The notes: generated from the sequence alone by a model not told the origin. A stretch of 64,000 nucleotides of DNA from Methanobrevibacter sp. (GCF_051877095.1 NZ_JBJEIO010000009.1:47874-111873); one strand, 5' to 3'; shown: positions 1-18,416, counted from the stretch's first letter. Program-made: numbers and translations.

Positions 1-181
1 TACAATCGGGATTTTCAAGGTTTTTATAGGTGTATGGTATAAATACTCTTGCTTCATCGTATTTGTATCCTTTTGCTTTTAATGTATCATCTACTTTATA
101 GCTTGAAAGTTCTTGAATTGATTTATATCTGTCATATTCATCAGTCTTGTTTATATTTTTATCAAATTTTTCTTCTTTCAT
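1..181 (-). CDS. Hypothetical protein, N-terminal 60 aa (runs off the window edge)
   Basis: GGTGA RBS at 186-190 then ATG at 181: MKEEKFDKNINKTDEYDRYKSIQELSSYKVDDTLKAKGYKYDEARVFIPYTYKNLENPDC..., open to position 1; follows the primase stop by 12 nt. Confidence 0.7.
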   Translation of the reverse strand, partial: MKEEKFDKNINKTDEYDRYKSIQELSSYKVDDTLKAKGYKYDEARVFIPYTYKNLENPDC

Positions 182-193
182 AATATCACCTTT

Positions 194-1365
194 TCATTGG
201 AGATGGAATATCTCCTTTAAATTCATTAACATTTCGTTTTTAGTCTTTGAGCCAGTTACTTGCATGATAAAATCGTATTTGTTAAGATTTACGCCGCAAG
301 CGCTGCAATAAAAACGATTTTTAAATACAACTGCGCTAGGATGGTTATCATCATGAAATGGGCAGCAGTAAGTATTTCTATTTTCATATTTAGCTACTGG
401 TTCGCCTAAGGTTAAAATAGCTAAATCTCTTAAGTCAACATTTTCAAATAAATCATCACTATGGTTAGTTTTACGTATTGCTATGCGTTTTTTATTTTCT
501 AGCTTTGTCTCCTTATTTAAATCATCATTTAATGATACTAATAAATCATTGAAAGAGTTAGGGGCATAATAATCATCAATATTGAATTCAATAGGTTTGT
601 TTTCATTTTTGATTATTTTATCGAGAGTATCCTCATAACTTAGGTCATTTGGTATTGGTTGACAATATAGTTTTGTTTTTGAGTTAATGCTGTAAGGGAC
701 TCGTTGAAGTCGCCTATGTGCATCACGATTTACAGCAATGTCAAGAGTATCTAAACCTAATGTTTTTTGAAAAACACTAGCTAAATGTTGGCTAATTTTA
801 CCAATTGATTTAGCTGCAACTCCCTAAAGAAAACATTAACATGAAAACCTTTGCTTCCGCTAGCAATAAGATATGCATTAATCTCTTTATTTCGTAAGTA
901 ATTGCATAGTTCGATAGCTTCTCTAAAAGGTTTTTCAAGCAGATCTTCATCAAAAATTAAAGATCTATATTCACTTTGCAGTGTCTTGATTTTTTCGCTT
1001 CTAGTTTTACCAACTAAATTTGATTGTACCTCAATAATTTCTTTTTTAATTGCTGAAGCTCTTTTATCTGTTACATCAAAGTCAAAGAATAATCTATCGG
1101 AGTACCTTTTACTGTTATCGTTCTTTTCGTATTCTGGTAAAGTTTTATAATAGCTAATCTCTGCTGCAAGAAGACCATGTACTCCAGAACGATATTTCAA
1201 ATTTAAAAAGTTGAAAAATGTCTCTGATGGGTCAACATTATCTTTATAATGTTTGCAATTTAAAAAAAGAGGTTGTGATATCTCATGAAGGTATCTAACA
1301 TCCCTATAATAATTACCATTGTAATAATCTCGATGGTAATCTCTTAAGGTATACATTTTAACCAT
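194..1365 (-). pseudogene. Archaeo-eukaryotic primase-polymerase (AEP) with C-terminal CHC2-type zinc finger, frameshifted at ~823-825
   Basis: Frame 1 (1365-826): motif I LFFDFD and motif II SGSKGFH. Shifted frame (823-194, 209 aa, no start codon): motif III region DIAVNRDAHRRLQRVPYSINSKT and CPFHDDNHPS...FYCSACG. One extra base in the AGGG run would join them into ~390 aa. Confidence 0.85.
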
Positions 1366-3742
1366 CTCCTAATAGCTTTTTAAAATCATCACTAGCTCTG
1401 TAGTAAGTTTCATCATCTACTTTGTTTTCTAACACTAATTGTGAATTTAATAAATCATTTATACATTTGCCTACAGCAATAGATAGAAAATCAATAGATG
1501 TATCATCAGTGTTGTAATTTTCATGTATTTCATCTGTCAGTTGCTTTGCGGTTAAATTTCCTTTAATCAAGCATAAACCAATGTTGCGCGCAAGTTCAGG
1601 ATTTTTCATCGTGCCTGTATTGGTTGTTATATCTAAGTTAGCACCCTTCTTTGAGCTTTGTTTTTCAAAAACAGTATTTTTAGAAGCTTTTGTGGGGGTG
1701 TGAAATTCACTCGAAGTTGGGTTAATATTCAATATTTTTGAATTTTTCAATTCTGAACCAATATCTTTTACATAAGATAAATCATTATATTTTGCTTTAT
1801 CCAGGTTAACGGAATATTTGTCATAATTGAAATTGCTAACTGCAACATTTATAAAATTATAATAAGAATTGTAGTCATTAATGTCGAGTTCATTTGAATA
1901 ATTTTCACAATAAAAATTAAGGTATGCCCACCCCTCTTCATTTAAAGTAATATTACACAACATAAATAAAGAGTATAAAACGGTTTGTTTAAAATTTAAG
2001 CTATTAATTTGGTTGCTATTTTTAATTTCGCAACCTACACAACTCCTTTTTTTATCACCCTCTTTTATTTTGTAGTATATCCAAGGTGATGATGATGAGC
2101 TATCTTTATCAAATAGTATCTTCCCTATCAAACCCATGTCTTCTAATGACTTAGCTGTACCCTGAGGATAATCTAAATAATTTCGTAGAGTACTTGATGC
2201 AATGCCTGTAGCTTTAGAAATGTTGCTTCTAGTGTATTCTTTTTCAAGGATTTCATTTTTCTCTTCTTTTGATTCCGCATCATTATACTTAGTTAATGCT
2301 TTTTTATGCTGGTCATGAGCTTCTTCATGGGTCTTTTCGGGTAAATATTCGAGTATTCTAATATGTTTATCGTTTAGTTTAAACTCTTGTATTTTTGCAG
2401 TTTTTTTCCATAATTCATTTACAAAGCTATAATCTTCATAAGAACCAATATAAATGTCTTTTTCACCGATTTTAACACTTTTTCTATTTAATGCATGAAA
2501 AAAAGTTTTAGATTTCACTAATGTAATAAATCCTTTTATATTTCTGTTGTTTAGTTCACTAGGGTCAAACAATAGTGTAAATGGGTTAAAAACATTAATG
2601 TCCATTTCAACTAGGTATTGGATAGCTGATTGGATTATTAACCTGCTTCTTTTGATAATTTCATTATTCTCAGAGTCTATGATGGTGTTAGTTTTGACTT
2701 TTCCTTTGATATTTTTCTTACTATCTTTTCCTGTGACAATGATGTTTAACTTATACAATCGGTTTAGAAGTTCTTCATCAATATTGTTCTTGGCATAAGT
2801 TAGTATAATTAGAAATTTGCCTTCTAAAGTAAAAGTTCGGGCTTTACCATCAATTACTGTCCTTAACTCTTTCACTGGTTTTTTATTATCTGCTAATTCT
2901 TTTATAACTTCAATCATTGATTCACTAAGGACAACATCGTCAAAAATCAAAATGTTGTATTTCCCATATGAATCGCGGTCATAATACACGTTTCTAGGAG
3001 AGATGTTCCGTACAATATTTATGTAGCATGGAGGGTAATTTTCTGATGTTTCGATAACTATATCAGTTTTTCCCACACCTGTGTCCGCATTAACTTCAGT
3101 ATGAACCGGCTGATCAATAAAGACAGATGAAAGTATTAATGCGAGTTGATTTGTAGCGTCCTTATTGCCTTCGTGAGTCCAAGAGATGTTGTCTATTGTA
3201 TTATCAAATAGTTTATCCTCTTCTAACATCTTAATAGCTTCTTCTTGAATTACTTTGTCATAATCTGTAAAGCTTATGGTATCTGGGCTTTGCTCTTCCA
3301 CTTCTTCGGCTTCTACTTTTTTTGGAAATTCAAAGTCGACTTCCTTTAAAACACTTAAACAATTGGCCTGGATAATAGATCTCTTAAAATTACTAACAAA
3401 TGAAATCAGTTCATCTTCATTAAATTCAAGGCCAGCGCTCTCGCTTGCTTTGAGTAGATTAGTAATTAGTTTCTTATCTTCTTCGTTAATTAATTTATCA
3501 CTTCTATAAATTGTTAAAGTCTGAAAACTATTGCCATTATATTTGGTCCATATATAGATAAGTTCTAACTTTTTACTTTCGTTTCTACTGAGTTTTAAAT
3601 AATTGTCTTGATTAAAAGGGATATACACTCCACTTTCATCAAATTTATAATTGATTAACTCGTCTGTTACTTTATAAATAGATTGATCATCTGCTATTTC
3701 TTTTTTAATAGCAACTTTAAGATCATCAAATTCTTCACGCAT
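1358..3742 (-). CDS. AAA+ (MCM-related/PS-II-like) ATPase, putative replicative helicase/initiator with winged-helix domains
   Basis: Walker A ADTGVGKT, Walker B ILIFDD, sensor/arginine-finger segment ILTYAKNNIDEELLNR; HTH-like SNISKATGIASSTLRNYL and a C-terminal wHTH; stop overlaps the primase start. Confidence 0.7.
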   Translation of the reverse strand: MREEFDDLKVAIKKEIADDQSIYKVTDELINYKFDESGVYIPFNQDNYLKLSRNESKKLELIYIWTKYNGNSFQTLTIYRSDKLINEEDKKLITNLLKASESAGLEFNEDELISFVSNFKRSIIQANCLSVLKEVDFEFPKKVEAEEVEEQSPDTISFTDYDKVIQEEAIKMLEEDKLFDNTIDNISWTHEGNKDATNQLALILSSVFIDQPVHTEVNADTGVGKTDIVIETSENYPPCYINIVRNISPRNVYYDRDSYGKYNILIFDDVVLSESMIEVIKELADNKKPVKELRTVIDGKARTFTLEGKFLIILTYAKNNIDEELLNRLYKLNIIVTGKDSKKNIKGKVKTNTIIDSENNEIIKRSRLIIQSAIQYLVEMDINVFNPFTLLFDPSELNNRNIKGFITLVKSKTFFHALNRKSVKIGEKDIYIGSYEDYSFVNELWKKTAKIQEFKLNDKHIRILEYLPEKTHEEAHDQHKKALTKYNDAESKEEKNEILEKEYTRSNISKATGIASSTLRNYLDYPQGTAKSLEDMGLIGKILFDKDSSSSSPWIYYKIKEGDKKRSCVGCEIKNSNQINSLNFKQTVLYSLFMLCNITLNEEGWAYLNFYCENYSNELDINDYNSYYNFINVAVSNFNYDKYSVNLDKAKYNDLSYVKDIGSELKNSKILNINPTSSEFHTPTKASKNTVFEKQSSKKGANLDITTNTGTMKNPELARNIGLCLIKGNLTAKQLTDEIHENYNTDDTSIDFLSIAVGKCINDLLNSQLVLENKVDDETYYRASDDFKKLLGDG

Positions 3743-3770
3743 TTTTTCCTCCTAAAAAAAATAATAAGCA

Positions 3771-3854
3771 TCCAAGGAGAAAAAGTATTTTAAATATTAG
3801 ACACATACATAGTTTTGCCGTTATGTGATGTGTTCATGTACTTTTCTACTTGAA
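3771..3854 (-). promoter_or_regulatory. Long imperfect hairpin in the leader of the helicase-primase genes
   Basis: Outer arms tccaaggagaaaaagta / tacttttctacttgaa and inner arms acacatacata / tatgtgatgtgt; ends ~30 nt upstream of the ATG at 3742. Confidence 0.45.
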
Positions 3855-3870
3855 TACATTACGTTTCTTT

Positions 3871-4041
3871 TTACATCAAATCTGATTCTCTTTCAGACTC
3901 GTAAAGAGCTTGTTCTATTAATTCGTCTTCAGATGGTTCATCTAGATCAAAATCTATAAAACCATACTTTTCACAATATCCGCAGTAATCGCATTTTTCA
4001 TACGGATACAACATACAGGGGTCACCTTTTTTATTCATCAT
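3871..4041 (-). CDS. Small acidic Cys-motif protein (47-56 aa), below the ORF-track cut-off
   Basis: (MMNKKGDPC)MLYPYEKCDYCGYCEKYGFIDFDLDEPSEDELIEQALYESERESDLM; GGTGA RBS before the ATG at 4014; CxxCxxC motif; fills the gap in the leftward operon. Confidence 0.55.
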   Translation of the reverse strand: MMNKKGDPCMLYPYEKCDYCGYCEKYGFIDFDLDEPSEDELIEQALYESERESDLM

Positions 4042-4453
4042 AAAAATCACCTCTAATAAAGAAATTTTCTTCTATTTCATCATAACTTGCGTCAAAAAAA
4101 CGCATATGATTATCTTCTAATAATCTGATTAATATTGAATCAAGATTTGCCATGCTGTTGTTAAGATGATTTATATTCAAATTTAAGAGACCTTGTTCAG
4201 CTTCGCCAGATTTCATATTGTCAATTATTTCTTCCAGTTCCTTTGCTGTAAATTCATCTTTTATTCCAGTATCGTGGTAGTATAGGATAGTATCAATTAA
4301 ATGTGTTGCTCTTATACTAATGCTAGTTCCATAATAAACAGCATTGTCAATGACTTTTCTAAGGTATACTAATTCAGTTATCATTTCTTGTACAGTTTCT
4401 TTTTTCATGTAATCGTTTTCAAAATCATTCTTCATTATCATCACCATTATCAA
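4031..4453 (-). CDS. Hypothetical acidic protein (likely start 4435)
   Basis: 140-aa ORF; GGTGA RBS before the ATG at 4435; overlaps both neighbours. Confidence 0.7.
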   Translation of the reverse strand: MIMVMIMKNDFENDYMKKETVQEMITELVYLRKVIDNAVYYGTSISIRATHLIDTILYYHDTGIKDEFTAKELEEIIDNMKSGEAEQGLLNLNINHLNNSMANLDSILIRLLEDNHMRFFDASYDEIEENFFIRGDFYDE

Positions 4454-4730
4454 ATATTGGTTCGATTTTTTCAGTTAACCATTCACTTTTATTACAAATT
4501 TTACAGTTTTTTTCTTCTATTTCACTTAATTCAATAATTAAACAATTTAAGACGACATGAAATCCTAGCAGGCAGTTGATAGCTTTTAAACCATCATCCC
4601 TTTCCATATCTATTGTTCTTGAATCAAATTGAGGCAATGAATCTAAATACTCGTTAAATGATATTAACAAGATATATAAATGATTCATCTCACCTTGTAG
4701 TTCATCTGTTTTTTCAACTAAATTTCTCAT
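4425..4730 (-). CDS. Hypothetical protein
   Basis: 101-aa ORF, first gene of the leftward operon; frame stays open ~14 codons upstream to a GAGGA motif followed by ATA. Confidence 0.65.
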   Translation of the reverse strand: MRNLVEKTDELQGEMNHLYILLISFNEYLDSLPQFDSRTIDMERDDGLKAINCLLGFHVVLNCLIIELSEIEEKNCKICNKSEWLTEKIEPIFDNGDDNEE

Positions 4731-4955
4731 ACTTTCCAGTTCTTCGTTTTTGATATTTTCGCTGTATATTATATCGTCCTCTTATATAGTGTAAATTTAA
4801 ATAATTTTTTTACAGAAGGCATTGATTTAAAAAACCTTCTTTCCACTACTTATATAGTCAACACATGATTATTTTTACTAATAATCTTCTATACTTGTGT
4901 GATGATTATTAGTTTATCGTTTAGCTTATTTATATGGCTTAGTTTTTCATAAAAT

Positions 4956-5024
4956 TGCGAATTATTCGGCGTAAGTGCGAATGCAGTATATTTAAATAAG
5001 TCATTTTTTTCGCATTTTTGCGAA
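4956..5024. promoter_or_regulatory. Putative operator: four TGCGAA hexamers around a TATA-like box in the divergent promoter region
   Basis: TGCGAA at 4956 and 4976 (20-bp spacing), palindrome TTCGCA-TTTT-TGCGAA at 5009-5024, TATATTTAAATA between them. Confidence 0.55.
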
Positions 5025-5090
5025 TTTTTTTGATACTTTAATAATTAATCTGGAATAGTATATTTACAGGAATTATCAAAATATAGTATT

Positions 5091-6284
5091 ATGAGACAGA
5101 TATTATCTAATGAAATTATCTATGAAGTGATTAAGTCATCAAACGTGTTACATAAGTCCATGATTAGTTTTATGTTTACTACTGGATTGAAACATGATAA
5201 ACTTAGAACTTTTAAAATTAAAGATTTATTACGTGCATGTAGTGCTTTTATGGATAATGGAGAATCTATTGATGATTTATTAAAGAAAAATTCATTAGAG
5301 ATTATTCCCTGTTGGAGAATATCTGATAGTTCTAATGTAGGAATTTGTTTTAACACTCCTGAAACCACCCAATATTTATTTGATTATTTAAAAGACAGAC
5401 AAAGATATGCTAATTTTAATGAAGAAAGTTATTTATTCAAAAATTATAATAAGGGTAATCCTGCTCTTAATGATGAAGAGCAATTAGAAAAAGATTTTAT
5501 TACAAAAGAATTAAGCCGTAAGAAAAAAGATTTAAACAAATTACATAATGGTGATGAAATACAGTTCAATCCAGGAAATATTACCTACACATTTATTAAA
5601 ATATGTAATGATCATTTAAAATTGGATGATTCAGATAAAAAAGAACTAATTGCTTTATTTCAAGCTAACACAACAAAAGAAAATAAATTTTATGATGACC
5701 CGAATATCAAAGAGTATTACACGGAATTAGTACAATATCTAACAATAGACCCTATATATGAATCTTATCATTATCCAGATGGTGACGATGGTGGCAGTGT
5801 TGAAGATGATGAAGAGAACAATGTTTATTCTGATTGGGATATTAAGCAAAAAATTGGTTCATATTACATGAACAATATTAAAACAGTGCATAAACTTGAT
5901 TATAATGAATATGATAGGTTATGTGGTATTGTATATGATTTAGCTATATATGATAGAGATTCTAAACACCACACGTTTATACTTAATGATGAATCATTGG
6001 ATAATTATTTTAAAAAAGCTAAAGTCCAAGTTCTAATTGAAGACTATACAGAAGAAATACATGTTCTAGTTAACGAAGGCAATATCGATGTTAAAATTAA
6101 TGAGATTATTCATTTAATGGATAAGATAGGTGTTCTTTATCTAATTCAAGATCATAATCATTTGATAAAGGTAATAAAAGAATACTTGACTTTCCCAATA
6201 CATGATTATGGGGAATTTGTAATCACTTCATCAGCCATAAATGATATCATAAATCTTTGTATTGATGGTTTTTTCATGAATTGA
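5091..6284 (+). CDS. Degenerate tyrosine-recombinase catalytic-domain homolog fused to an acidic C-terminal domain of unknown function
   Basis: SMISFMFTTGLKHDKLRTFKIKDLL resembles box I (R replaced by K); CFNTPETTQYLFDYLKDR and KEYYTELVQYLTI resemble methanogen integrases; the HxxR box is replaced by FNPGNITY; no N-terminal core-binding domain. Confidence 0.65.
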   Translation: MRQILSNEIIYEVIKSSNVLHKSMISFMFTTGLKHDKLRTFKIKDLLRACSAFMDNGESIDDLLKKNSLEIIPCWRISDSSNVGICFNTPETTQYLFDYLKDRQRYANFNEESYLFKNYNKGNPALNDEEQLEKDFITKELSRKKKDLNKLHNGDEIQFNPGNITYTFIKICNDHLKLDDSDKKELIALFQANTTKENKFYDDPNIKEYYTELVQYLTIDPIYESYHYPDGDDGGSVEDDEENNVYSDWDIKQKIGSYYMNNIKTVHKLDYNEYDRLCGIVYDLAIYDRDSKHHTFILNDESLDNYFKKAKVQVLIEDYTEEIHVLVNEGNIDVKINEIIHLMDKIGVLYLIQDHNHLIKVIKEYLTFPIHDYGEFVITSSAINDIINLCIDGFFMN

Positions 6285-6640
6285 TTTATGCTCTATTACA
6301 TGTTTAAAATAGCTATGTAAGACACGGAATGGATTTACTATGGTATGTATGTAAGACAGTAATTAGACTTGATTTCATTGAATATAGCTGATCATAAGGC
6401 TCTTGAATCGAATTTTCCGAGTGCTTATTTTTGTGATTTTGCTCCGCTTTTCTGCTGTTGTGTCAGCTGATTTTCCAGTTGCTCTGTTCTAATGGCTGTC
6501 GATTTCGTACTTTAGTACTTACTTATACAATTTCTTAATGGTGTTGTTGGTGTAGGTTCAGCAGTTTTTGTAGTGGTTGCTGATGTAGGTTCTGTTATTA
6601 TGGGCAGTTATATCATGTAACATATTAAAAATGCTCTTAC

Positions 6641-6867
6641 TTTTACACTTGAAATGATACCTCGAAAAAAAATTTAACTGTTTAAAATTCTTTGATTCAT
6701 CTATTCTATTTAGATAGCTACTTTTTTTCTAAATACTCTAATTTTAAATGTACTTCAAGTGTAAATAATAACTCTTCGTAAAATAGCTTGATTAGGTAAT
6801 TAGTAAATTTATGAACGAATTAAGTTAATCAGGGTAAGTATATTTGTTTAATTTTTACACTTGAAAT
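6641..6867. repeat. Three copies of TTTACACTTGAA (two direct 15-mers, one inverted 12-mer)
   Basis: ttttacacttgaaat at 6641-6655 and 6853-6867; ttcaagtgtaaa (reverse complement) at 6754-6765. Confidence 0.85.
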
Positions 6868-7169
6868 AACACTTCTCCGTTGAGTTTGAGGGCTTAATTC
6901 TAAATTTTTGGTGGGTCATCTATATGTTGTGGGAGAGATACTTAATTTTTACAATACTCTATAAAATAAAGAAAGAAAGAGGTAATCATTTGCATGGTTA
7001 AGCAACTAAGTATCATGAATACTTGAATGTATATTGAATATGGTGGGGGTAAAATCAACTATGAATTTTGGTTGGTTGCTCCGATTGGAAAATAAAGCTC
7101 AAATTCGGCTCTGATTCATATTGATAAAAACCCCAAAATCGAGCTTATTTTTTGGACCAAAAAATTGTG

Positions 7170-7199
7170 TTTTTGCAAGTGTATAAACACTTACAAAAA
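7170..7199. repeat. Near-perfect palindrome (13-bp arms, 1 mismatch; also parses as 11-8-11)
   Basis: tttttgcaagtgt-ataa-acacttacaaaaa; the arms resemble the ACACTTGAA repeat upstream. Confidence 0.85.
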
Positions 7200-7204
7200 T
7201 TAAT

Positions 7205-7356
7205 TTAGAAACATTTTATTTTGTATGCATAGCTAAGTGTTGGTAGAGTAAGAACTCTTTTAATGTTGTTTCATACTTTCTGATTAATATTGTTTGTTTT
7301 CCTTGTCCTAAAGCTTCAATTTTTCCATTTCATTCGTTTATACGTTTTATTTTCAT
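7205..7356 (-). pseudogene. DUF1802-like (ASCH/PUA-like) gene remnant, N-terminus only
   Basis: MKIKRINE*NGKIEALGQGKQTILIRKYETTLKEFLLY then frameshift to (P)TLSYA; resembles the DUF1802 N-terminal signature xEWxxxxEALxxGxQxILxRK...FLLYPT; TGA at 7330-7332 at the Trp position. Confidence 0.7.
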
Positions 7357-7365
7357 TATGTTTGT

Positions 7366-10300: not shown

Positions 10301-10503
10301 GAAATGTTTTTCAAACGTTGAATAATATTTTTTATTTCAGAATCAGTAATATCGTACATTCTTTTTAAATATGTAATTAAGTCATCTTCAATAAGGACAT
10401 TATTTTTATTTCTATTAATTTCATCACCATGATAACAATCATAGCCGTTTTTACCAAATAAATCTTTAAATGATTGTTCTAATTCATATTCATCAAATGA
10501 CAT
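7366..10503 (-). CDS. hsdR: Type I restriction enzyme R subunit
   Basis: PD-(D/E)xK site IPDGIVFINGLPIVVLEFK, Walker A GATGSGKS, DEAH box, GFTGTP, MWLTGFDVP, QTVSRVNR. Confidence 0.95.
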   Translation of the reverse strand: MSFDEYELEQSFKDLFGKNGYDCYHGDEINRNKNNVLIEDDLITYLKRMYDITDSEIKNIIQRLKNISVSSVYDANKEFFSLLTNGFLFKRENIDDKDIFIHLIDFEDRTNNIFKFVNQVEIEGSVKRIPDGIVFINGLPIVVLEFKSAVRGEEATIYDAYEQLTIRYQRDIPELFKYNAFVVISDGVNNKYGTLFTDYEYFYAWKKLKEEDIEKEGINSLYTMMYGLFNKEILLDIIKDFIYFPDVSNHEVKIICRYPQYFSATKVHENVIKHIKPEGDGKGGTVFGATGSGKSYAMLYLTRMLMRDKRLKNPTILLITDRYDLDIQLAEEFLNAKNFIGDNDVIRFDSRKTLKEYLKDRKSGGVYLTTIQKFNESVELLTERSNVICISDEAHRSQLNLDEKQTVDETGVYKTIGFAKCLHESLPNATYVGFTGTPIDATIDVFGEIVSQYTMYEAVDDGIIVNLKYDGRYAKVTVDEELIKLIEQYYKFCESKGTNQHQIQESIKQMTRMYVILGNPNRLEKVANDFIADYEQRVEDRTTVKGKAIFVCSKREIGYEFYKIVINKRPEWAIEGYADDIDFDKVNLDELKKMPKIKMVMTREKDDDPEFYEILGSDKDRAEASKEFKNENSNFKIAIVRDMWLTGFDVPCLDLIYIDKAIQQHTLIQTVSRVNRAYEGKEFGIIIDYIGIKDELDLALRKYNDNADDQFEDIDKAIKIVKDKLSILHNMFYEFDDSDYFNGTPSEKLQCLKEAAEFAQVSEDIENRFMGHVRDLSSAYKLCTSSEEISKEERDYIYFYQGVRSIIYKYNKGDAPDVSQMNRKVGKMLEAAIQSEGVEEVFKIDQSPDALEIFSKQYQDIINKIQLPNTRIKLLERLLKRVITDYKKVNRIKSVEFTERLNKIVDDYNEMRRKHPRALEAYEEITKKISELFEDIEKDRKSFEEMNITIEQKAFYDILKYCAEKYDFEYPHEKLLPLSAKVKELVEEKTKFGDWKNTARKAELEAELIILLDDNGYPPVPEDEVINDVFEQAENYGKYNTPITG

Positions 10504-10526
10504 CCATACCCCTCCTGATTAAACCT

Positions 10527-11729
10527 CTAACTCACATTTATCTTAGAGACATCAATTTCACCAGTCATTAGTTTAGCTATTAATGTGTCTCTTAATTTTT
10601 GTAATTTTTCTATTTCAAAACAATTTGCAGATATCTGAGAATATAAAGGATGTACAATATTTTTATATTCTGAAATAATGTCTTCTGGAGGGCATATAAT
10701 ATTAAATGATTCTAAATTCTCTTTATTAATATGTTGTTGGGCCCCGCCTGTTTGATGTTTTAATAATTCAAAAAGAATGCTTGAAATTAATGGATATATA
10801 AATTCATATGGGTACTTTTTATTGGGAACAACACCAATCACTGATTGATTCGCACATGAATCTATTTCCAATAAACTAATTTGACCTAAAGTAGCACCAG
10901 TAATAGCTATAACTGTAGTTTTGGCAGGCAATAATTTTGTAGCAGATTTTTTTAAACCTTCTTCAGTAATATATTCGGAAGGTTCAATTATCCTAAATTC
11001 ATTAACTTTCCCAGAATTTATCCATGCAATATTTCCTCCCCAATATGATTCATTAGACCTACTTGGGGTTCCACCTAATTTACAATCTAAAATATCTCCC
11101 ACGGAGGTAATATTCCATCCTTTTGGTATTTTTCCAATTTTAGAATCGATAAATTTCTCATTAATGAAAGGAGTGAAATCAATGAAATAATACTTAAATA
11201 TAGTATGACATGTTTCATCTAAATTCTTACTTAAATTTTTGAGTATTGTTATTCTATCATCGATAAGGTTTTTAATTTCAACTACTTTGTTTTGATGTTC
11301 TAATGGTGGAACAAAGAGTTCTGTGTTTTCCATATCTTCCCATGAAAATATTTCACGTACTGATCCATGTGAGTGATATCTTGCATATCTATCAAATTCT
11401 GGACGTTCAAACCATAACATAAGATAATCTGGATTTAATAAATCTGCATCAACATCAAATACTGTATATGATGATGAGATTATACCTCCTTTTTCTTTGA
11501 ATAAAGCTACAGATATCTTATCCCCATTTCTTGATGTTGTAGGCATGTAAACAAATTGATTGTATGCAATTAATTTATATTTACTTAAATCAGCACCAAT
11601 AATATTTGCTTTTGAGTCTGTGAATTGTTTTTCATTACTTAAACCTACTAAATTAGTTTCAGAAGAATCTTTGTTCTTAAGTTTAGACTCAGTAATATAG
11701 TTACCTAATTTACTATAATTTGATTTCAT
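10527..11729 (-). CDS. hsdS: Type I restriction-modification specificity subunit (two TRDs)
   Basis: PPLEHQNKVV conserved helix, KIPKGW, GGTPSR, GAQQHIN; lies between hsdM and hsdR. Confidence 0.93.
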   Translation of the reverse strand: MKSNYSKLGNYITESKLKNKDSSETNLVGLSNEKQFTDSKANIIGADLSKYKLIAYNQFVYMPTTSRNGDKISVALFKEKGGIISSSYTVFDVDADLLNPDYLMLWFERPEFDRYARYHSHGSVREIFSWEDMENTELFVPPLEHQNKVVEIKNLIDDRITILKNLSKNLDETCHTIFKYYFIDFTPFINEKFIDSKIGKIPKGWNITSVGDILDCKLGGTPSRSNESYWGGNIAWINSGKVNEFRIIEPSEYITEEGLKKSATKLLPAKTTVIAITGATLGQISLLEIDSCANQSVIGVVPNKKYPYEFIYPLISSILFELLKHQTGGAQQHINKENLESFNIICPPEDIISEYKNIVHPLYSQISANCFEIEKLQKLRDTLIAKLMTGEIDVSKINVS

Positions 11730-13248
11730 GCCCTAACTCCTCAAATAGTTTCAGTATCTTATCTTTAGAGTCTTGCTCTTCTTTATACAATTCTACAAAT
11801 TCATTTTTCAATTCGGACATTTTCTCATCAAAATTTAATGTTTCAACAGCATCAACAAATTCAATATATCTACTTGGAACTAAAACATAATCTTTCTCTT
11901 TAATCTCATCTAATTCAGCAGAATAACAAAATTCAGAAATGTCTTCATAATTATATATATTTGAACGCCATGTATTAATTGTAGAAACTACTTTATCCCT
12001 ATCTTCTTGTGTTAATTGAACATATTTTTTATCAAATGGAGCGCCCATTTGTCTTAAATCTAAGAATAAGATTTCATTTGTTCTATCTCTAAAGTTATTT
12101 TTTTCTTTTTTGTTTTTATTAATAATCCAAAGGGATACAGAAATGTCAGTTGTATAAAATAATTTTCTAGGTAATATTAATATAGCTTCTACAAGATCAT
12201 TTTCTATTAATTGTTTTCTAATTTTGTATTCGGCACCTTTATCACTTAAAGATCCATTTGATAATAAAAATCCTGCAATACCCTCTACTGATAGTTTAGA
12301 TACCATATGAAGAATCCATCCATAGTTTGCATTACTTGTTGGGGGTACTTCATATCCATCCCATCGAGGGTCTTTTGTTAATTCTTCACTTGCCCTCCAT
12401 TTTTTCTGGTTGAATGGTGGATTCGCCATGATATAATCCGCTTTTAAATCAGGATGTTGATCATTGAAAAATGTATTCGCCGCTTTATCTCCTAAGTTTC
12501 CTTTAATACCCCTTATTGCTAAATTCATTTTTGCTAATTTTAGTGTTGTTGAAGTGTATTCTTGACCATATATTGAAAGTTCATTTGTATCTCCATGATG
12601 ACTTTCCAAAAGCTTATATGATTGTACAAACATACCTCCAGATCCACAACAGGGGTCATATAATATTCCATCGTGAGGTTCTAATATTTCAGCAATTAGA
12701 TTTACAATAGATTTTGGAGTATAGAACTCTCCTTTACTTGATGCTTCTTTAATAGCAAATTTACTTAAAAAATATTCATATATTCTACCAAAGAAATCGT
12801 TATCATCTTCAGGAATTCTAATATTATTTATTTCATCTAATAAACTTGCTATATTATTGCTTTCTAATTCTAAACTTGTGAAATAGTTGTTAGGTAGCGC
12901 TCCTTTTAAATCATCATTTAGTTTTTCAATATTGCTTAATGCAGTATCTATCTTTAAAGCAATATCTGGTTGTTTTGCATTTTCAATTAAATATTCCCAA
13001 CGAGACTCTTCATCCAAATAAAATACATTATCTTTATTATAAAATACGGGTTTATCAATGTATTTTTTTCTACCTTCATCAATTAACTTTTGTCTTTGTT
13101 TTTTAAATTTATCACTTATATTTTTTAAAAATATTAAACTGAGTACTACGTGTTTATATTGTGATGTTTCTACTGACCCCCTCAGTTTATCTGCAGCATT
13201 CCACAATGATTCTTCAATTGAGATTTGTTTTTTTGCCAAACATATCAC
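11713..13248 (-). CDS. hsdM: Type I N6-adenine methyltransferase (likely start TTG at 13239)
   Basis: LWNAADKLRG N-terminus, GEFYTP, DPCCGSGGMF (SAM binding), NPPF (motif IV). Confidence 0.96.
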   Translation of the reverse strand: MICLAKKQISIEESLWNAADKLRGSVETSQYKHVVLSLIFLKNISDKFKKQRQKLIDEGRKKYIDKPVFYNKDNVFYLDEESRWEYLIENAKQPDIALKIDTALSNIEKLNDDLKGALPNNYFTSLELESNNIASLLDEINNIRIPEDDNDFFGRIYEYFLSKFAIKEASSKGEFYTPKSIVNLIAEILEPHDGILYDPCCGSGGMFVQSYKLLESHHGDTNELSIYGQEYTSTTLKLAKMNLAIRGIKGNLGDKAANTFFNDQHPDLKADYIMANPPFNQKKWRASEELTKDPRWDGYEVPPTSNANYGWILHMVSKLSVEGIAGFLLSNGSLSDKGAEYKIRKQLIENDLVEAILILPRKLFYTTDISVSLWIINKNKKEKNNFRDRTNEILFLDLRQMGAPFDKKYVQLTQEDRDKVVSTINTWRSNIYNYEDISEFCYSAELDEIKEKDYVLVPSRYIEFVDAVETLNFDEKMSELKNEFVELYKEEQDSKDKILKLFEELGHEIKL

Positions 13249-13329
13249 CCTTATAAAAAAATTATTTTAATTTGTATCATATTTTTATTAGACACATTTT
13301 ATAATGGTTATTATTTGTGGTTATTTATT

Positions 13330-13611
13330 ATTGAATTAGGAGATTAAAAATATAAATTAATATGTGGTTTAATTTAAACTTTGGAGGGTATTTATTATTT
13401 TCATCAATAATTTTTTTTACTTTATTTTTGTCAGTAATTTTCCATTCCAAACCATTTAAAATGATTTTTTCTTTGAGTTTGTTTATATCAACACTTGTTA
13501 TAGCAATCTGTTTTCCATTTTTATATTGTAACCTTTATGATGGTTCGTAGAATCAAAATAATTAATCCAAAATAATTCTTTTTCATCTAATTCATTATTA
13601 TCAAAATATTT
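13330..13611 (-). pseudogene. Remnant of a GIY-YIG-type endonuclease with a small C-terminal DNA-binding-like repeat domain
   Basis: KYFDNNELDEKELFWINYFDSTNHHKGYN (end of a GIY-YIG domain, ExxWI...GYN), then in another frame QYKNGKQIAITSVDINKLKEKIILNGLEW; no start codon or GIY/YIG motifs remain. Confidence 0.6.
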
Positions 13612-13640
13612 TTATAAAAATTTAATAAAATTATTAACTA

Positions 13641-15695
13641 GTGATAATTATGGTGCATTACGAACTAAATGAGCAGCAAAATGGTATTGAATTATATTTT
13701 GATGGGTTTCCAGGTTATCCATTAATAAATGAAATGAAAAGTCATAAACTACGTTGGAACCCCAGCAAAAAGTGTTGGTGGACTTATCAATCAAATGTTG
13801 AAGGAGTCAAATTCATTAAAGATTATTGTGCCAAAAGTACTGAAGACAATGCTGATAAAACAATAACCTTCGATAAAATGATAAAAGGCCGTTGCTGTTA
13901 TGTAGATACAATATTTAATTTTAATAAGGAAAATGAGAATGATTTTATCAACAAAATCAAATCAACATTTTTAGAAGAACATTTAGTTGATTTAAGTGAT
14001 TCTCAAATTAATGCTTGGGTTGATTCATTTAGAGTAATGCAAAATCTTAATTTGAACCCTAATCTCAATATTATTTTTGAATATGTTTTACCTTACGAAT
14101 CTGGTAGGCGTCCAGATATAATTTTAATTTCAAATGATCATGTAGTAATTTTAGAATTTAAAATGAAACATGAGGTTAAATATGAAGATATTGACCAAGT
14201 AAAAGCCTATGCTAGGGATATAAGAGAATATCATTATGAATCACGTGATAAAGAAGTTGTTCCTTTGCTGGTTTTAACAAGAACTAGTGGACTAAATGAA
14301 GAAATAAATAATATAACCTGTGTTTCTGGAGACATGCTTCAAGGAGTTTTAGATAATATTTTCACTTATGAAATTACCGATTGTGATGCTAATTATTGGA
14401 TTGCATCTAAATATGAACCATTACCTACCATTGTAGAGGCTGCAAGAACTTTTATGAAAAATGAACCTTTACCAAATATAAGGCGAGTAAATAGTGCTGG
14501 AATTCCTCAAGCAATTGAAAATCTTGAAAATTTAACAGAATATGCAAGAGACAATCAAAAACATATTATTGCATTGGTCACTGGTGTTCCAGGTGCTGGA
14601 AAAACTTATCTTGGATTGCAATATGTTTATGATATTGAAAAAGTTGGTTCAGTTTATTTATCCGGTAATGGGCCGTTAGTTGAAGTTTTAACTGACGCTT
14701 TGAAAAGTAAAAACTTTGTAAGAAATTTGCATACTGTTATTAATGAATATAGACGTACTGGCGCTCCTGATTTTGATAAAAATATTATTGTTTTTGATGA
14801 AGGGCAGCGTGCTTGGGATTCCGAGCAAATGGCTGCTAAACGTAATGATGATCGTTCCGAACCAGATATAATGATTGAACTTTGTGAAAACCGTTTAGAT
14901 TGGTGTGTTCTTTTAATATTGGTGGGCGAAGGTCAAGAAATATATAATGGTGAAAATTCTGGTATGGCATTATGGGATATTGCTCTTAAAAATAGTAAAT
15001 TTGATTGGGAAATTGCTTGTCCAGCTAAATTAGATTCATATTTTGAAGACCATTTACTTCTTGACAACATAGAAAAAGACTCCTTTGATTTAACTGTTTC
15101 TCTACGTTCACACTTATCAGGCACTGTTAGTGAATTTGTTAATTATCTTATGGCGGGTGAAATTGAAAAAGCATCTCAACTTACTGATGAAATTTATGCT
15201 GAAGATTATGATATGTATTGCACTCGAAACTTAGATAAAGCTAAGGATTATTGTAAAAGATATTCTGAAGAACCAAATAAACAATATGGTTTGATTGCGT
15301 CTTCAAAAAGTTCTGTTCTTAAAAATTATGGTATGTATAATGATTTCAAATCAACAAGAAAAGTTAATGTTGCTAAATGGTTTAATGCACCATCTAATGA
15401 CCCTCAATCTTGTTGTGCTTTAAAAGATGTAGTAACTGAATTTGCTATACAAGGATTAGAATTAGATATGCCTATAATTGGTTGGGAAACTGATATGATT
15501 TGGAATGGCTCTGAATGGGAAAAATTTAGAAAAAATGAAGATGAAAATAGTGATGCCAATACATATAGAAGAAATAGTTATAGAGTATTATTAACTAGGG
15601 GACGTGATGGATTTATTGTATTTGTCCCTCCTGTTGATAAGTTGGATTCTGTTTATGAGTTATTATTGTCTGTTGGAATAAAAGAATTAAATTAA
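13641..15695 (+). CDS. Nuclease-helicase: small N-terminal domain + PD-(D/E)xK (NERD-like) nuclease + DUF2075 (Schlafen group 3-like) SF1 helicase; likely start 13650
   Basis: EYVLPYESGRRPDIILISNDHVVILEFK; GVPGAGKT; DEGQRAW; LRS; IQGLELD; YRVLLTRGRDG. Confidence 0.85.
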   Translation: MIIMVHYELNEQQNGIELYFDGFPGYPLINEMKSHKLRWNPSKKCWWTYQSNVEGVKFIKDYCAKSTEDNADKTITFDKMIKGRCCYVDTIFNFNKENENDFINKIKSTFLEEHLVDLSDSQINAWVDSFRVMQNLNLNPNLNIIFEYVLPYESGRRPDIILISNDHVVILEFKMKHEVKYEDIDQVKAYARDIREYHYESRDKEVVPLLVLTRTSGLNEEINNITCVSGDMLQGVLDNIFTYEITDCDANYWIASKYEPLPTIVEAARTFMKNEPLPNIRRVNSAGIPQAIENLENLTEYARDNQKHIIALVTGVPGAGKTYLGLQYVYDIEKVGSVYLSGNGPLVEVLTDALKSKNFVRNLHTVINEYRRTGAPDFDKNIIVFDEGQRAWDSEQMAAKRNDDRSEPDIMIELCENRLDWCVLLILVGEGQEIYNGENSGMALWDIALKNSKFDWEIACPAKLDSYFEDHLLLDNIEKDSFDLTVSLRSHLSGTVSEFVNYLMAGEIEKASQLTDEIYAEDYDMYCTRNLDKAKDYCKRYSEEPNKQYGLIASSKSSVLKNYGMYNDFKSTRKVNVAKWFNAPSNDPQSCCALKDVVTEFAIQGLELDMPIIGWETDMIWNGSEWEKFRKNEDENSDANTYRRNSYRVLLTRGRDGFIVFVPPVDKLDSVYELLLSVGIKELN

Positions 15696-15729
15696 AAAAA
15701 GGATTTAAAAAAATAAAATTATATCCATT

Positions 15730-16134
15730 TTATTTTCTTCTTAAAGGGAACATCCAAACGTTTCTATTGTCTCCCTCAGCGTCTGGTTGAATTTCTTGAT
15801 ATGGTTCACCAGCTAATTCTACAAGGCCATGATAAGTATACCTTCCTTCTTCGAAAACTTCGAATAAATGAAGGTCAACACCATTAGTTGCGGATTCATT
15901 TAATGTTTTGTTTTGCATGTAATTAATGTCTTGGTCTCCAATTCTACCCATTCCAGTATAATGAAGAATATCTCCTTTCCATGCATCATCATACATTTTA
16001 TTATGGTCAAAAACTATTACGAGAGTGTTTGTTGTTTTTGAACGGCGCATGCCTCCAGATTTACCGCATTTAAAAGCGTCCATAAGTTCGTCGTTGCTGT
16101 AACCTTCTCCAATTATTAAATCACTTATATTCAT
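15730..16134 (-). CDS. Stand-alone SRA-like (PUA-superfamily) domain of the type usually fused to an HNH nuclease in McrA-like enzymes
   Basis: YSNDELMDAFKC..SGGMRRS..TNTLVIV..H..MYDDAW.GDILHYTGMG..GDQ....QNKTL.ES......HLFE......Y.Y.G...L...PYQE.QPD..G..R.VW.FPL; stop 35 bp from the convergent gene. Confidence 0.8.
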   Translation of the reverse strand: MNISDLIIGEGYSNDELMDAFKCGKSGGMRRSKTTNTLVIVFDHNKMYDDAWKGDILHYTGMGRIGDQDINYMQNKTLNESATNGVDLHLFEVFEEGRYTYHGLVELAGEPYQEIQPDAEGDNRNVWMFPLRRK

Positions 16135-16232
16135 GATGGTTGTCCTCCGATTTTTGTTGGTATTACTAATATTATAATCAGGTTATTAATAAAGTTTCTG
16201 TTTTTAAATATTTTAAAAAAATTTTATAAGGA

Positions 16233-17180
16233 TTATTCTTTTTTTACTTCTTCTAAGACATCTTGGAATATTTCCTTTAAACCAAGTAATGCATTCCAAA
16301 CTGTGTCTATTTCGTCATGCATAACTTTACTTGAATGAACAACATTATTTCTTAAAGTATAATAATAAAGAGCTGAACAAGTAGAATTTTTGGGGTTTAG
16401 TTTATAACTTTCTAAATCCTCTGCTGAAAAAATTTCATCTTGCCATACTTTTTGATGGCTTAAATAGAATCCGTTATCTCCAATAGCATTGTAATTTTTT
16501 TGTAATGATTTTTTAAATGAAGGTTCTATTGAAAATTTTTTAACATTCATAGTTTTTGTGTGTCCGTATCTGAATGTTAAAAATCGATCGATTGCAGACC
16601 ACAATGTTATATACAATGATTGGACATATACAAATGGTTTTAAATCATCCCACTGATAATTAAAAGGATGTTGTTTTATTCCTTTAATATTAAAATCCAC
16701 GTAATCTAATATATTTTTAAAAACGGGGTCTACTCGCCAATCATAACCATTTGGGCCAAAACCATGTGATCTTTCTGGAAAAGGTTTATTTTCAGGGTAC
16801 ATTAAAACATTTACTTTCTGGCCGTCCACTGTGATTACTTTCCAACAATAAAGATGCATGTTTTTACTGTATCCAATGGTTTTATAAGCTTCTCTTTCAG
16901 GATATTTAAATTTAATAATATTTGCTTTAATAGGGCTATGTGAAGATTTATTTAGTAAAACAGGTACTCCATTTACATTACCTAATTCATAATTTATTTC
17001 AATATCTTCAGGGGTTCCTTTAACATACTCTTCAATTTGTGAATATGCTAATTGGTGTGGTTTAAAAAAACCGTAAGATAGAAACGGCAATTTTAAATTT
17101 TCTTTTTTGGGAATTCCAGCACTTTCTATAATTCTTCTACGGTTATAACAATCATCCAAATTTTTGCCCATTATTCTCAC
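16233..17180 (-). CDS. Gamma-glutamylcyclotransferase (GGCT/AIG2)-fold domain fused to a HEPN domain; likely start 17171
   Basis: N-terminal PFLSYGFFKPHQLAY (GGCT YG loop); C-terminal LWSAIDRF...YYYTLRNNVVHSSK with the HEPN RxxxxH motif. Confidence 0.7.
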   Translation of the reverse strand: MRIMGKNLDDCYNRRRIIESAGIPKKENLKLPFLSYGFFKPHQLAYSQIEEYVKGTPEDIEINYELGNVNGVPVLLNKSSHSPIKANIIKFKYPEREAYKTIGYSKNMHLYCWKVITVDGQKVNVLMYPENKPFPERSHGFGPNGYDWRVDPVFKNILDYVDFNIKGIKQHPFNYQWDDLKPFVYVQSLYITLWSAIDRFLTFRYGHTKTMNVKKFSIEPSFKKSLQKNYNAIGDNGFYLSHQKVWQDEIFSAEDLESYKLNPKNSTCSALYYYTLRNNVVHSSKVMHDEIDTVWNALLGLKEIFQDVLEEVKKE

Positions 17181-17342
17181 CCTTAATTATAATGTTGTTT
17201 TTCATAAGAAATATATTTTCATGTTGTATTAATATTGTTTTAAGCTTATAAAATTACAAACAAAAAGCAATAATCACTTGGATTCATATGTAAAGACTTA
17301 AATAATTAATTAATCAATTAATTACATAAGTAGGTGTTTGTT

Positions 17343-17492
17343 ATGGCAATTTTAACTATTGATGTCTTGAAGAACCTAATAGAGAACATACCTGATGATT
17401 ATACTGTTGAATATAATAAAGAAGTAACTATTGCTCCAATCGATGACACAGTAGAGATTGATATTAGTGGTAAAAGACTTATATTCAAATAA
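17343..17492 (+). CDS. Small hypothetical protein (49 aa)
   Basis: AGGTG RBS; MAILTIDVLKNLIENIPDDYTVEYNKEVTIAPIDDTVEIDISGKRLIFK. Confidence 0.6.
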   Translation: MAILTIDVLKNLIENIPDDYTVEYNKEVTIAPIDDTVEIDISGKRLIFK

Positions 17493-17649
17493 AAATCTGT
17501 TTATAGTATTGTAATAGCATAGTCATGCAATAGCAATAGCTAAACCTCTATTAAACTGAAATGATTTACTACTTTTAATTTTATTTTTGTAATACTTTTA
17601 TGGTACATTATTATTATTTATCGTAAAAATAGTGTATAGTTTATTATAG

Positions 17650-18234
17650 AGCTTTGAAAATTCAATGGAGGACATGTCTCAGTATAGTGAAGGACCATTA
17701 TATGATGAAGTGAGAAGATCAATTGTTGAAATTAGAATGGGTCGTAATTTTGATGAAGCATGGAGGGCAATGAGTAAACGTTTAAAATCAAAAGAATTAG
17801 AGAGGATATTTGGAATTATTCTTGATGGTAGGAGAAGTGGATCTAGTATTTCTACTGTTTTGTTTGATGTTTCCAATGATTTAAGAGATTTGATGGCTCT
17901 TAAGCGTGAGAGAAAGTCTTCGGTTATGATGTCAGTTATGTTTTTGTTAATTTCATCTATTGTAGCAACACCTTTTGCAATGGGTATGGTTAGTGTTTAT
18001 TCTAGTTTTATGCAAAGCTATGGAATGGAATCTGAAATTATTTTGTCAGCTCCAATTGTAGGTGAAATATATTTAATAATTCACTCTCTTTTGGTAGGTT
18101 TTATTATTAGTATTATAATGTATGGGGAGGTTAAAAAGGGAATCAAGTTTTCTATACCTCTTGTAGGAGTATCTTTTGGAATATTTTATTTAATGTCTAC
18201 ATTTGGTGCAACATTATTAACTGGGGGATTTTAA
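17650..18234 (+). pseudogene. tadC: 5'-truncated type II secretion system F / TadC pilus assembly membrane protein
   Basis: SFENSMEDMSQYSEGPLYDEVRRSIVEIRMGRNFDEAW... is mid-T2SSF-domain sequence; in-frame TAG directly before SFEN; N-terminal TM region absent; stop overlaps the pilin start. Confidence 0.8.
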
Positions 18235-18416
18235 TGGATAATCAGGCTCAAACATCTGCAGAATTTATTTTATTGTTTGGAGGAATATTTGTTGTGGTTT
18301 TATTGGTTATTTATATGTATAATAATTATTTAAATGATTTGGGTGGTCAAGTCCAATCAAAAGAGGTTGTTGAATTTAATAATCAATTAAAAACACTTAA
18401 TGAATATTTTAAATAG
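18234..18416 (+). CDS. Class III signal peptide pilin-like protein
   Basis: MDNQAQ-TSAEFILLFGGIFVVVLLVI: [G/A]QxSxE pattern plus hydrophobic helix, coupled to tadC. Confidence 0.85.
   Translation: MDNQAQTSAEFILLFGGIFVVVLLVIYMYNNYLNDLGGQVQSKEVVEFNNQLKTLNEYFK

Follow-up and report, generated by a model that had tools for sequence, protein, structure and literature searches.

Why should a tadC gene, encoding a platform protein of a type IV-like pilus, begin in the middle of its conserved domain? This question is raised by a 64,000 nt stretch of DNA from Methanobrevibacter sp. (hereafter the window, with positions counted from its first nucleotide), in which a tadC/EpdJ-K-like gene fragment (17650-18234, + strand) lies directly to the right of genes for replication, recombinase-like and defence proteins. 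The window is positions 47874-111873 of contig C9 (NZ_JBJEIO010000009.1) in a genome of 1.53 Mb and 14 contigs (G000; ~29% G+C, completeness 99.7%); C4 below denotes another contig of the same genome. A first-pass annotation made from the sequence alone had proposed that a mobile element at 1-18416 is integrated within tadC, with the protein-coding gene rather than a tRNA gene serving as its attachment site (attB). We find that tadC, which is intact in most relatives, has been cut in two by a 21,977 bp integrated element, most of which lies in the window.

Homology to intact TadC orthologues begins at window position 17650 (codon ~116/117), directly after an in-frame TAG at 17647-17649. The first ATG of the fragment is found at 17665, which gives a 189 amino acid (aa) open reading frame (ORF) at 17665-18234. 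The Pfam T2SSF domain (PF00482) matches the fragment with 43.2 bits (cut-off 25.2) over profile positions 21-122 of 125, and a whole-genome T2SSF search extends this match to profile position 14. A tadC orthologue was found in 40 of the 41 relatives surveyed across the order, and its open frame is ~307-330 aa in nearly all of them. The closest orthologue, that of genome G005, is 94% identical and has a 313 aa frame, versus only 194 aa in G000. Because the T2SSF match starts inside the profile and the frames of relatives are ~310 aa long, the gene begins mid-domain and ~120 codons are missing, as the first-pass annotation had noticed.

The missing codons are present elsewhere on the same contig. 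A tblastn search of the whole genome with the intact G005 protein located residues 1-121 at C9:43198-43560, directly after an M24 peptidase gene and 4.3 kb to the left of the window, and residues 117-311 at C9:65523-66107. The left junction (attL) reads GGATTAAGTTTTGAAAA followed by AACTTGAG, the right junction (attR) reads TATAGAGCTTTGAAAA followed by TTCAATGG, and the intact gene reads GGATTAAGTTTTGAAAATTCAATGG. An 8 bp core, TTTGAAAA, is present at both junctions (attL, C9:43549-43556; attR, window 17653-17660), and the core-to-core length of the insert is 21,977 bp. When the two flanks are joined in silico, an uninterrupted tadC ORF of 310 aa results. Thus, the 5′ half and the short direct repeat that the first-pass annotation expected at the other end of the island are both in place, and a protein-coding gene is indeed split at an attB. 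The core falls in codons ~117-120 of the ~310-codon platform gene, so that the cut is made at ~38% of its length. No full-length tadC is left, as the gene now consists of 121 codons on one side and codons ~117-310 on the other; the 3′ piece has lost the two N-terminal membrane helices together with the initial ~14-20 T2SSF positions, and the element carries nothing that would restore the gene.

The uninterrupted form of this locus exists in the same species. Among conspecific contigs from pig-gut metagenomes, chosen because their M24 peptidase is identical to that of G000, five (L091-L094 and L098) carry an intact, contiguous 310 aa tadC followed by the pilin and SBF genes. The joined G000 flanks align with these empty-site contigs without gaps at 99.91-100% identity over 2.6-3.4 kb, reaching 3,433 bp, with 0-3 mismatches over 3.4 kb. 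The remaining M24-identical contigs carry the 121-codon tadC fragment and then an integrase gene, and both junctions are seen again in independent assemblies. In relatives, genes for an M50-like and then an M24 peptidase are followed by tadC, the pilin gene, the SBF transporter gene, a pair of TMEM175-like genes and an aldehyde dehydrogenase gene, and the right side of the window keeps this order. None of the three circumstances that the first-pass annotation had named as contrary to an insertion (an intact tadC contiguous here, a naturally short tadC in relatives, or the absence of a 5′ half) applies to the configuration in G000.

The gap-free match of the flanks to empty sites also defines the extent of the insert. 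The full element occupies approximately C9:43557-65525, and its right-hand 17.65 kb correspond to window positions 1-17652. The earlier placement of an element at 1-18416 therefore holds for the DNA to the left of 17650, all of which belongs to the insert and includes the replication, recombinase-like and defence cargo that had been noted. The proposed start at position 1 does not hold, since this is only the edge of the window; the true start is C9:43557, and the left 4.3 kb of the element are outside the window.

Comparison of occupied loci indicates that the position of the insert is not arbitrary. In the G000 species, no fewer than three variants of the integrase (100%, 87% and ~64% identity) are found at the exact same base of tadC, and three different element right ends are joined to that base; the junction point at the attR core is the same in all variants and species examined. 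No fewer than five distinct alleles of tadC are joined to the same right end at this codon, one being G005-like and one having a G007-like gene order, and in another species the site is occupied by an element with other cargo (L081/L082). Most variants carry an 11 bp sequence, AGTTTTGAAAA, that is identical to attB, from which the G000 variant departs at one position. On the element side, the likeness to attB continues outside the core, as AG[C/T]TTTGAAAA. On the basis of these sequences, elements of this family favour tadC as their attB in different strains and species, and the gene is disrupted when they integrate.

The right end of the element is an imperfect terminal inverted repeat, AAATAGTGTATAGTTTATTATAGAGC (17625-17652), whose counterpart at the left end is ACTTGAGTATAAGCTGTACACTTTAT; ~18 of 26 positions are complementary in inverted orientation when aligned by eye. 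The right repeat contains TTTATTATA (17640-17648), which the first-pass annotation had considered might still drive the truncated tadC and the pilin gene. This string is element DNA, two other variants that share the junction point have another sequence here, and strings like it are common in a genome of 29% G+C. A truncated TadC product, if made at all, would still be short of the two membrane helices and the beginning of the T2SSF domain. The repeat that holds it is likely to be an integrase-binding region.

It could be argued that the short tadC is natural, given that two-gene platform systems exist and short TadC-like proteins are plausible, that it is an assembly artefact, or that it was created by a transposon, 8 bp being a typical size for a target-site duplication. 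We consider all of this exceedingly improbable. A naturally short TadC is rejected because orthologues are ~310 aa long and the missing 121 codons lie at the other end of the insert, and an assembly chimera is rejected because both junctions recur in independent assemblies. A transposon target-site duplication is rejected because the same base is reused, the likeness to attB extends beyond the core, and the gene at the element end encodes an integrase and not a transposase or Cas1.

This integrase is a 557 aa protein (C9:43610-45283, + strand) encoded outside the window, starting 50 bp inside attL. Its family is represented in 91 of the 103 genomes of the genus that were surveyed, often in multiple copies. 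A profile built from 11 family members matches the archaeal tyrosine recombinase XerA (5hxy) with E = 2.2e-5 over the C-terminal HxxR...Y region. The profile also matches, weakly, the 'Probable integrase' chains 3vcf, 4dks and 3uxu (E = 0.003-0.006), which we take to be the catalytic domain of the SSV1 integrase. The predicted catalytic residues R217, K219, H285, R288 and Y317 (HRLRKRH ... ETYY) are invariant in the family alignment, with the register set by eye. A probable tyrosine recombinase, divergent and encoded inside attL, would have catalysed the crossover at the core.

An integrase with 100% identity occurs on 19 contigs representing at least four host backgrounds, in which the flanking DNA is at most 72% identical to that of G000 or cannot be aligned. 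This spread of an identical protein suggests that the integrase works as an enzyme, and the distribution of the element carrying it (L081-L088) implies very recent transfer between species. Among the 103 genus representatives, the conserved 24 nt left end is present only in G000 and G061, and it has no exact match in metagenome or viral contig collections. In G061, the integrase is 57% identical and is located elsewhere than tadC. A third integrase of the same family is found in G000 (C7:37190-38365; 391 aa, 35% identical), beside a 492 aa ORF.

The tadC gene is not the only pilus gene of this genome to be interrupted. Profile searches of G000 revealed two T2SSF genes and a single strong locus for a T2SSE ATPase, and the open frame of the pilus ATPase gene is 307 aa versus ~480 aa in relatives. 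The first 179 residues of the ATPase are encoded at C4:29634-30170 and the remainder at C4:43997-44908, with the split at C4:30138/43997. The intervening second element (within C4:29634-44908) is 13,859 bp long, has a 9 bp core, AACGCCACA, at both junctions and carries a gene for a 593 aa integrase inside attR. Joining the C4 flanks gives a 472 aa ATPase and a sequence that is 99.93-99.98% identical to intact conspecific loci over 4.5 kb. In this case the gene is cut at ~36% of its length (codon ~170), and again nothing restores it. Backbone genes of the same types are found in both G000 elements, which also have a 393/397 aa protein in common (65% identity). An ATPase was matched in 100 of the 103 genus genomes, and its gene is otherwise intact in almost all 100. 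Truncations of tadC at contig ends (G058, G068, G070, G097, G099 and G104, with G077 beginning at a contig end) were left out of the insertion counts.

Pairing of the two loci by metagenomic sample, where each sample can be a mixture, gives five samples with tadC occupied and the ATPase gene intact, two with both intact and one (SRR30616775) with both occupied. Occupancy of the ATPase gene only is seen in none of the samples shown. This distribution fits an ATPase insertion that came after the tadC insertion.

Two further lineages of integrase target the same pair of genes. In G048 (L079, G048:C3:68000-80500), an integrase 54% identical to that of the C4 element is situated within codons ~122-132 of the ATPase gene, with the core TGAAAACAAA. 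In G078 (L060, G078:C136:7183-10023), a 749 aa integrase of the same family (35% identity) abuts a 3′ tadC fragment that starts from codon ~133, in the opposite orientation. The G078 junction, TGACCATAGTATCAT followed by TCTACGATGAG, is the inverted form of the ends found beside extra 5′ tadC fragments in other species. Because of this inversion, the sequences suggest that tadC contains a second att site that is used in both orientations.

The extra 5′ fragments are themselves widespread. In many species, a copy of codons 1-~137/146, often as an intact ORF, is located 1-7 kb upstream of a full-length tadC (L067-L074, in G016, G010, G107, G046, G024, G048, G115 and G114). The DNA in between is variable and includes trkH, a transglutaminase-like gene, giant adhesin-like genes and a transposase. 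Most of these fragments stop at the LYDEM codons, and ends resembling ATACTATGGTCA come next; the fragment of G107 and the middle fragment of G016 end differently.

What would the loss of tadC mean for the cell? Filaments of clade 1/system 1, found in methanococci, methanobacteria and thermococci, are assembled with one ATPase and two TadC-like proteins, and the ATPase is the sole secretion ATPase of Methanobacteria (PMC4858521). The architecture in G000 matches this description (PMC4858521, PMC13705601), with one ATPase gene, two platform genes and an adjacent pilin-like gene encoding a signal peptide of class III (18234-18416, + strand; PF04021, 26.3 bits), whose start overlaps the tadC stop codon. 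In Methanococcus maripaludis, deletion of any of the 11 genes of the Epd cluster results in cells with no pili (PMC13705601, PMC4858521). Because each platform gene and the ATPase gene are required in that organism, we infer by analogy that the G000 cell is unable to assemble its Epd-like pilus. Transposon insertions in epdJ, epdK or epdL of M. maripaludis also abolish natural transformation, for which a TctA-like protein is needed as well (PMC10133366). In G000, a gene for a TctA-like transporter (C4:27352-28605) is located 1 kb upstream of the pilus ATPase gene.

These characteristics, coupled with bacterial precedents, lead us to propose a rationale for the choice of target. Bacterial elements recurrently integrate in comYC, comM, comK and comFA, which has been read as a defence against 'chromosomal curing' by transformation (PMC4774983). 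In the proposed sequence of events, the element enters by crossover at the 8 bp core in tadC, and the resulting cut would abolish pilus assembly. Loss of the pilus would be no accident and would benefit the element, most likely by blocking the pilus-dependent uptake of DNA that could cure the element by homologous recombination. Removal of a virus receptor may be an additional benefit. Inactivation of the gene is directly seen, and a role in DNA uptake is drawn from the homology to M. maripaludis epdJ/K/L (PMC10133366) and from the neighbouring TctA-like gene. Taken as a whole, the explanation that a plasmid-like element integrated at the tadC core, split the gene, prefers this site and probably gains from the loss of the pilus is one that we hold with considerable confidence. 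It is a more tentative proposal, and one we would not expect to be borne out in full, that elements have repeatedly evolved integrases cutting genes of the only Epd-like filament in the cell (four lineages, two genes, four positions) since the pilus mediates DNA uptake and uptake-deficient cells cannot delete the element through recombination with an empty allele.

Several observations weigh against these interpretations. First, the site is not exclusive. The identical integrase also has secondary sites, one where an FmdE-domain gene ends (...AGTATTGAAAA before the junction) and one beside an acetyltransferase gene (...AGCTTTGGAAAA before the junction). On another contig (L122, SRR30092113), the same right end is joined, at TTTGAAA, to an aldehyde-dehydrogenase gene of which 374 of ~470 aa are present, representing either a secondary site or a deletion that removed the tadC fragment and the pilin, SBF and TMEM175 genes. 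Furthermore, the short core TTTGAAAA has 467 occurrences in the G000 genome. Because of these secondary sites and this short, frequent core, targeting as judged from the sequences is preferential rather than exclusive, set by the core together with the flanking imperfect inverted repeats, and part of the pattern of sites could reflect tolerance of pilus loss. Second, the 557 aa protein has no PF00589 match in a single-sequence Pfam search, the C4 integrase matches only with E = 0.021, and the arginine position of box I is apparently a lysine in the 557 aa integrase and many relatives (SGTAKME), whereas it is arginine in others (SGCARRE). Third, a reconstructed attP (31 nt, ...TATAGAGCTTTGAAAAAACTTGAG...) has no exact match in metagenome or viral contig collections, and a look-up of the 53 aa ORF found at element right ends gave no contig in which the integrase follows, that is, no circle junction. 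Finally, there is no direct evidence for pili, DNA uptake or virus adsorption in the G000 organism, and no report of natural transformation in Methanobrevibacter in the literature searched.

The short core and the existence of secondary sites would be expected if the integrase merely recognises a short sequence in the stretch encoding the conserved SFEN motif of TadC. By this account the pilus is dispensable in the gut, and its loss is a tolerated side effect of no benefit to element or host. The decay of pilus genes without any insertion in G020, G022, G086 and G087 agrees with this account, as does the sample distribution, in which five samples have tadC occupied with an intact ATPase gene and the reverse is seen in none of those shown; a neutral ATPase insertion after pilus loss would produce such a pattern. 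However, four integrase lineages with different cores have struck four positions of the machinery, namely tadC codons ~117 (G000) and ~133 (G078) and ATPase codons ~170 (G000) and ~125 (G048). Also, archaeal elements residing in protein-coding genes usually take the 3′-distal end, where the gene is not inactivated (PMC6563490, PMC11375127), and the pilus system is conserved, as the surveys of tadC and the ATPase gene revealed. We therefore regard a mere side effect as possible though somewhat unlikely.

The precision of the junctions brings to mind a reversible switch, in which exact excision would restore tadC and turn piliation on and off, resembling the 'active lysogeny' of the Listeria comK phage or the skin and SPbeta elements of Bacillus. 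Removal of the insert with one core copy restores the frame exactly, the gene fragments are undecayed relative to intact alleles, the integrase ORF is intact, and empty and occupied alleles coexist in the species. Such a switch is nevertheless doubtful. Public contigs contain no attP or circular junction, no listed sample has both empty-site and occupied-site contigs, no excisionase was recognised in the element, and the ATPase gene insertion would need to be excised as well.

Another view, which builds on the first-pass annotation, is that disruption of the pilus keeps pilus-adsorbing viruses from infecting the lysogen-like host, on top of the protection provided by the defence cargo. In Sulfolobales, type IV pili are bound by some archaeal viruses, such as SIRV2 and STIV, and all variants of the element carry restriction or defence genes beside attR, such that these elements are plainly engaged in virus defence. 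However, the literature searched contains no pilus-dependent virus of Methanobrevibacter, and the paper on MSTV1 is without mention of pili or a receptor. We find it rather improbable that receptor loss is the explanation. As a rationale for the preferred tadC insertion, we favour a block of DNA uptake over the loss of a virus receptor, because of the transformation role of epdJ/K/L, the TctA-like neighbour and the bacterial com precedents, and because nothing comparable was found for a receptor.

The gene content of the element is that of a plasmid with added defence functions. To the left of the window, the integrase gene is followed by one for a 314 aa Zn-ribbon membrane protein, within the left 4.3 kb. 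Next is a 263 aa ORF (C9:47263-48054, - strand), the 5′ part of which falls in the window (2-181); it has a C-terminal zinc finger and a weak match to a DNA primase family (phrog_360, E = 2.8e-4). A primase-polymerase-like protein of 194 aa (781-1365, - strand) has a weak PrimPol match and is 27% identical to the N-terminal part of a 1051 aa DUF5906 primase-helicase encoded by the C4 element. The next gene is that of a replication helicase/Rep-like protein of 794 aa (1358-3742, - strand) with a Walker A motif. The family assignment of the latter, PF27228 (MTBMA_p00010_2nd), is a precomputed Pfam match on an identical 794 aa gene in L085/L086; a search of the 794 aa protein against a local copy of Pfam gave no match. 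Primase-helicase functions are spread here over the 263, 194 and 794 aa ORFs, and the same calls are made in independent assemblies (L081-L084). In sister variants, a single 1047 aa DUF5906 protein takes the place of these three ORFs.

Beyond two small ORFs is the gene for a degenerate integrase-like backbone protein of 397 aa (5091-6284, + strand), the 65% identical counterpart of which is encoded at C4:33918-35099. This protein is weakly similar to the starts of integrase catalytic domains and has a 393 aa counterpart in variant L114. The cargo begins with a type I restriction-modification (RM) operon (7366-13248, - strand) composed of hsdR (7366-10503), hsdS (10527-11729) and hsdM (11713-13248). 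A DUF2075/Schlafen-type helicase (13641-15695, + strand; PF09848, E = 2.6e-59) is a candidate defence gene of type PDC-S41 (E = 2.6e-136). Then come genes for an SRA-like domain protein of 134 aa (15730-16134, - strand; SAD_SRA below the cut-off, phrog_15103 with E = 1.5e-40) and a 315 aa cargo protein with no family match (16233-17180, - strand). The small conserved ORF at the right end (17334-17492, + strand) is 52 aa long here, versus 53 aa for other variants, and is found ahead of the junction on 14 contigs.

The 557, 397 and 315 aa proteins and the small ORFs have no match in Pfam, NCBIfam, PADLOC or PHROGs, and no tRNA gene was found in the element. No capsid, terminase, portal or tail genes were detected among the element proteins with PHROGs and Pfam, in a search that did not cover every small ORF, and on this lack of virion gene matches its identity as a provirus is rejected. 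Judged by its gene content, the insert is a plasmid-like integrative element and no recognisable provirus.

Across the family, the backbone of integrase, Zn-ribbon protein, primase-helicase and 397 aa protein is conserved, and the restriction/defence block beside attR is variable (L111-L117): type I RM with PDC-S41 and SRA, versus Eco57I-like type IIG with GmrSD, versus Mrr/AspBHI with a C5 methylase. This variable block recalls the defence hot spots of bacterial integrative elements. Methanothermobacter plasmids such as pFV1/pFZ1, pME2001 and pMTBMA4 are extrachromosomal and likewise combine a conserved replication backbone with variable RM modules. The tadC element shares with them a Methanobacteriales host and interchangeable RM/defence cassettes, the only computed link being PF27228, which is named after MTBMA_p00010. 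Unlike these plasmids, it resides in the chromosome between defined att sites, encodes an integrase and is seen in no free form.

The mechanism of integration is ordinary, in that Methanobacteriales and Thaumarchaeota are known to harbour tyrosine-integrase elements whose short att core lies in a protein-coding gene; the target and the consequences are out of the ordinary. [quoted passage not shown] In contrast to the tadC element, these take the 3′-distal end and leave the gene essentially intact, whereas the cut at ~38% of tadC removes essential parts. MSTV1 is also a virus, whereas the tadC element, with no capsid or terminase genes found, is not. The 'suicidal' integrases of the SSV type in Sulfolobales and Thermococcales are archaeal tyrosine recombinases, as the 557 aa protein probably is, in keeping with the weak profile match to the 'Probable integrase' chains. 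They differ in that the att site of the tadC element is outside the integrase gene, so that this ORF is whole after integration, and in that protein-coding genes rather than tRNA genes are targeted.

The closest functional analogy may be the disruption of competence or competence-pilus genes in bacteria, which is caused by comYC prophages in streptococci and lactococci, by comM islands such as AbaR of Acinetobacter and by the comK prophages of Listeria (PMC4774983, PMC11441513). As in these cases, a probable tyrosine-integrase element resides mid-coding sequence in a gene for a type IV filament or for DNA uptake, related integrases reuse the orthologous position across species, the insertion is polymorphic in populations, and several genes of one machinery are struck by different elements. 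There are differences as well. The host is an archaeon, the targets are a platform protein and an ATPase rather than a pilin or ComM, the element is plasmid-like with defence cargo rather than a prophage or resistance island, and the role of the pilus in DNA uptake is deduced only from Methanococcus.

A dominant genus of gut methanogens thus has its only type IV filament affected by a recurrent cut in the middle of the platform gene, and a sister element cuts the ATPase gene. The tadC insertion is present in some conspecific strains and absent from others, it is found in more than one species, and its defence cargo differs by variant. Occupied strains are natural knock-outs that, together with matched intact strains, could be used to probe the role of the Methanobrevibacter pilus in adhesion, DNA uptake or virus reception. 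They also make the hypothesis that mobile elements act against transformation testable in archaea. A 2025 review of the conflict between mobile elements and transformation gives no archaeal example (PMC12378983). If DNA uptake is indeed what is blocked, this would be the first archaeal counterpart of that bacterial conflict, and gut Methanobrevibacter would be naturally transformable. Furthermore, the genus lacks a genetic tool, and one could be built from the compact attP/attB pair together with an integrase that passes from one Methanobrevibacter species to another.

Other features were observed at or near the pilus loci. Beyond the ATPase/EF-1-beta locus of G000, large ORFs on the minus strand (C4:48263-55877; 710, 934, 710 and 178 aa) may belong to an adjacent provirus or an adhesin cluster. 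In G020, stop codons are present in both tadC (C6:115347-116204) and the ATPase gene (C13:52033-53358), such that the whole system is decaying with no insertion. In G022, G086 and G087, one pilus gene each carries a frameshift or deletion, likewise without an insertion. At the G087 locus (C15:29626-30493), ~20 codons of tadC are missing from the stretch that separates the two att positions (between codons 113 and 134).

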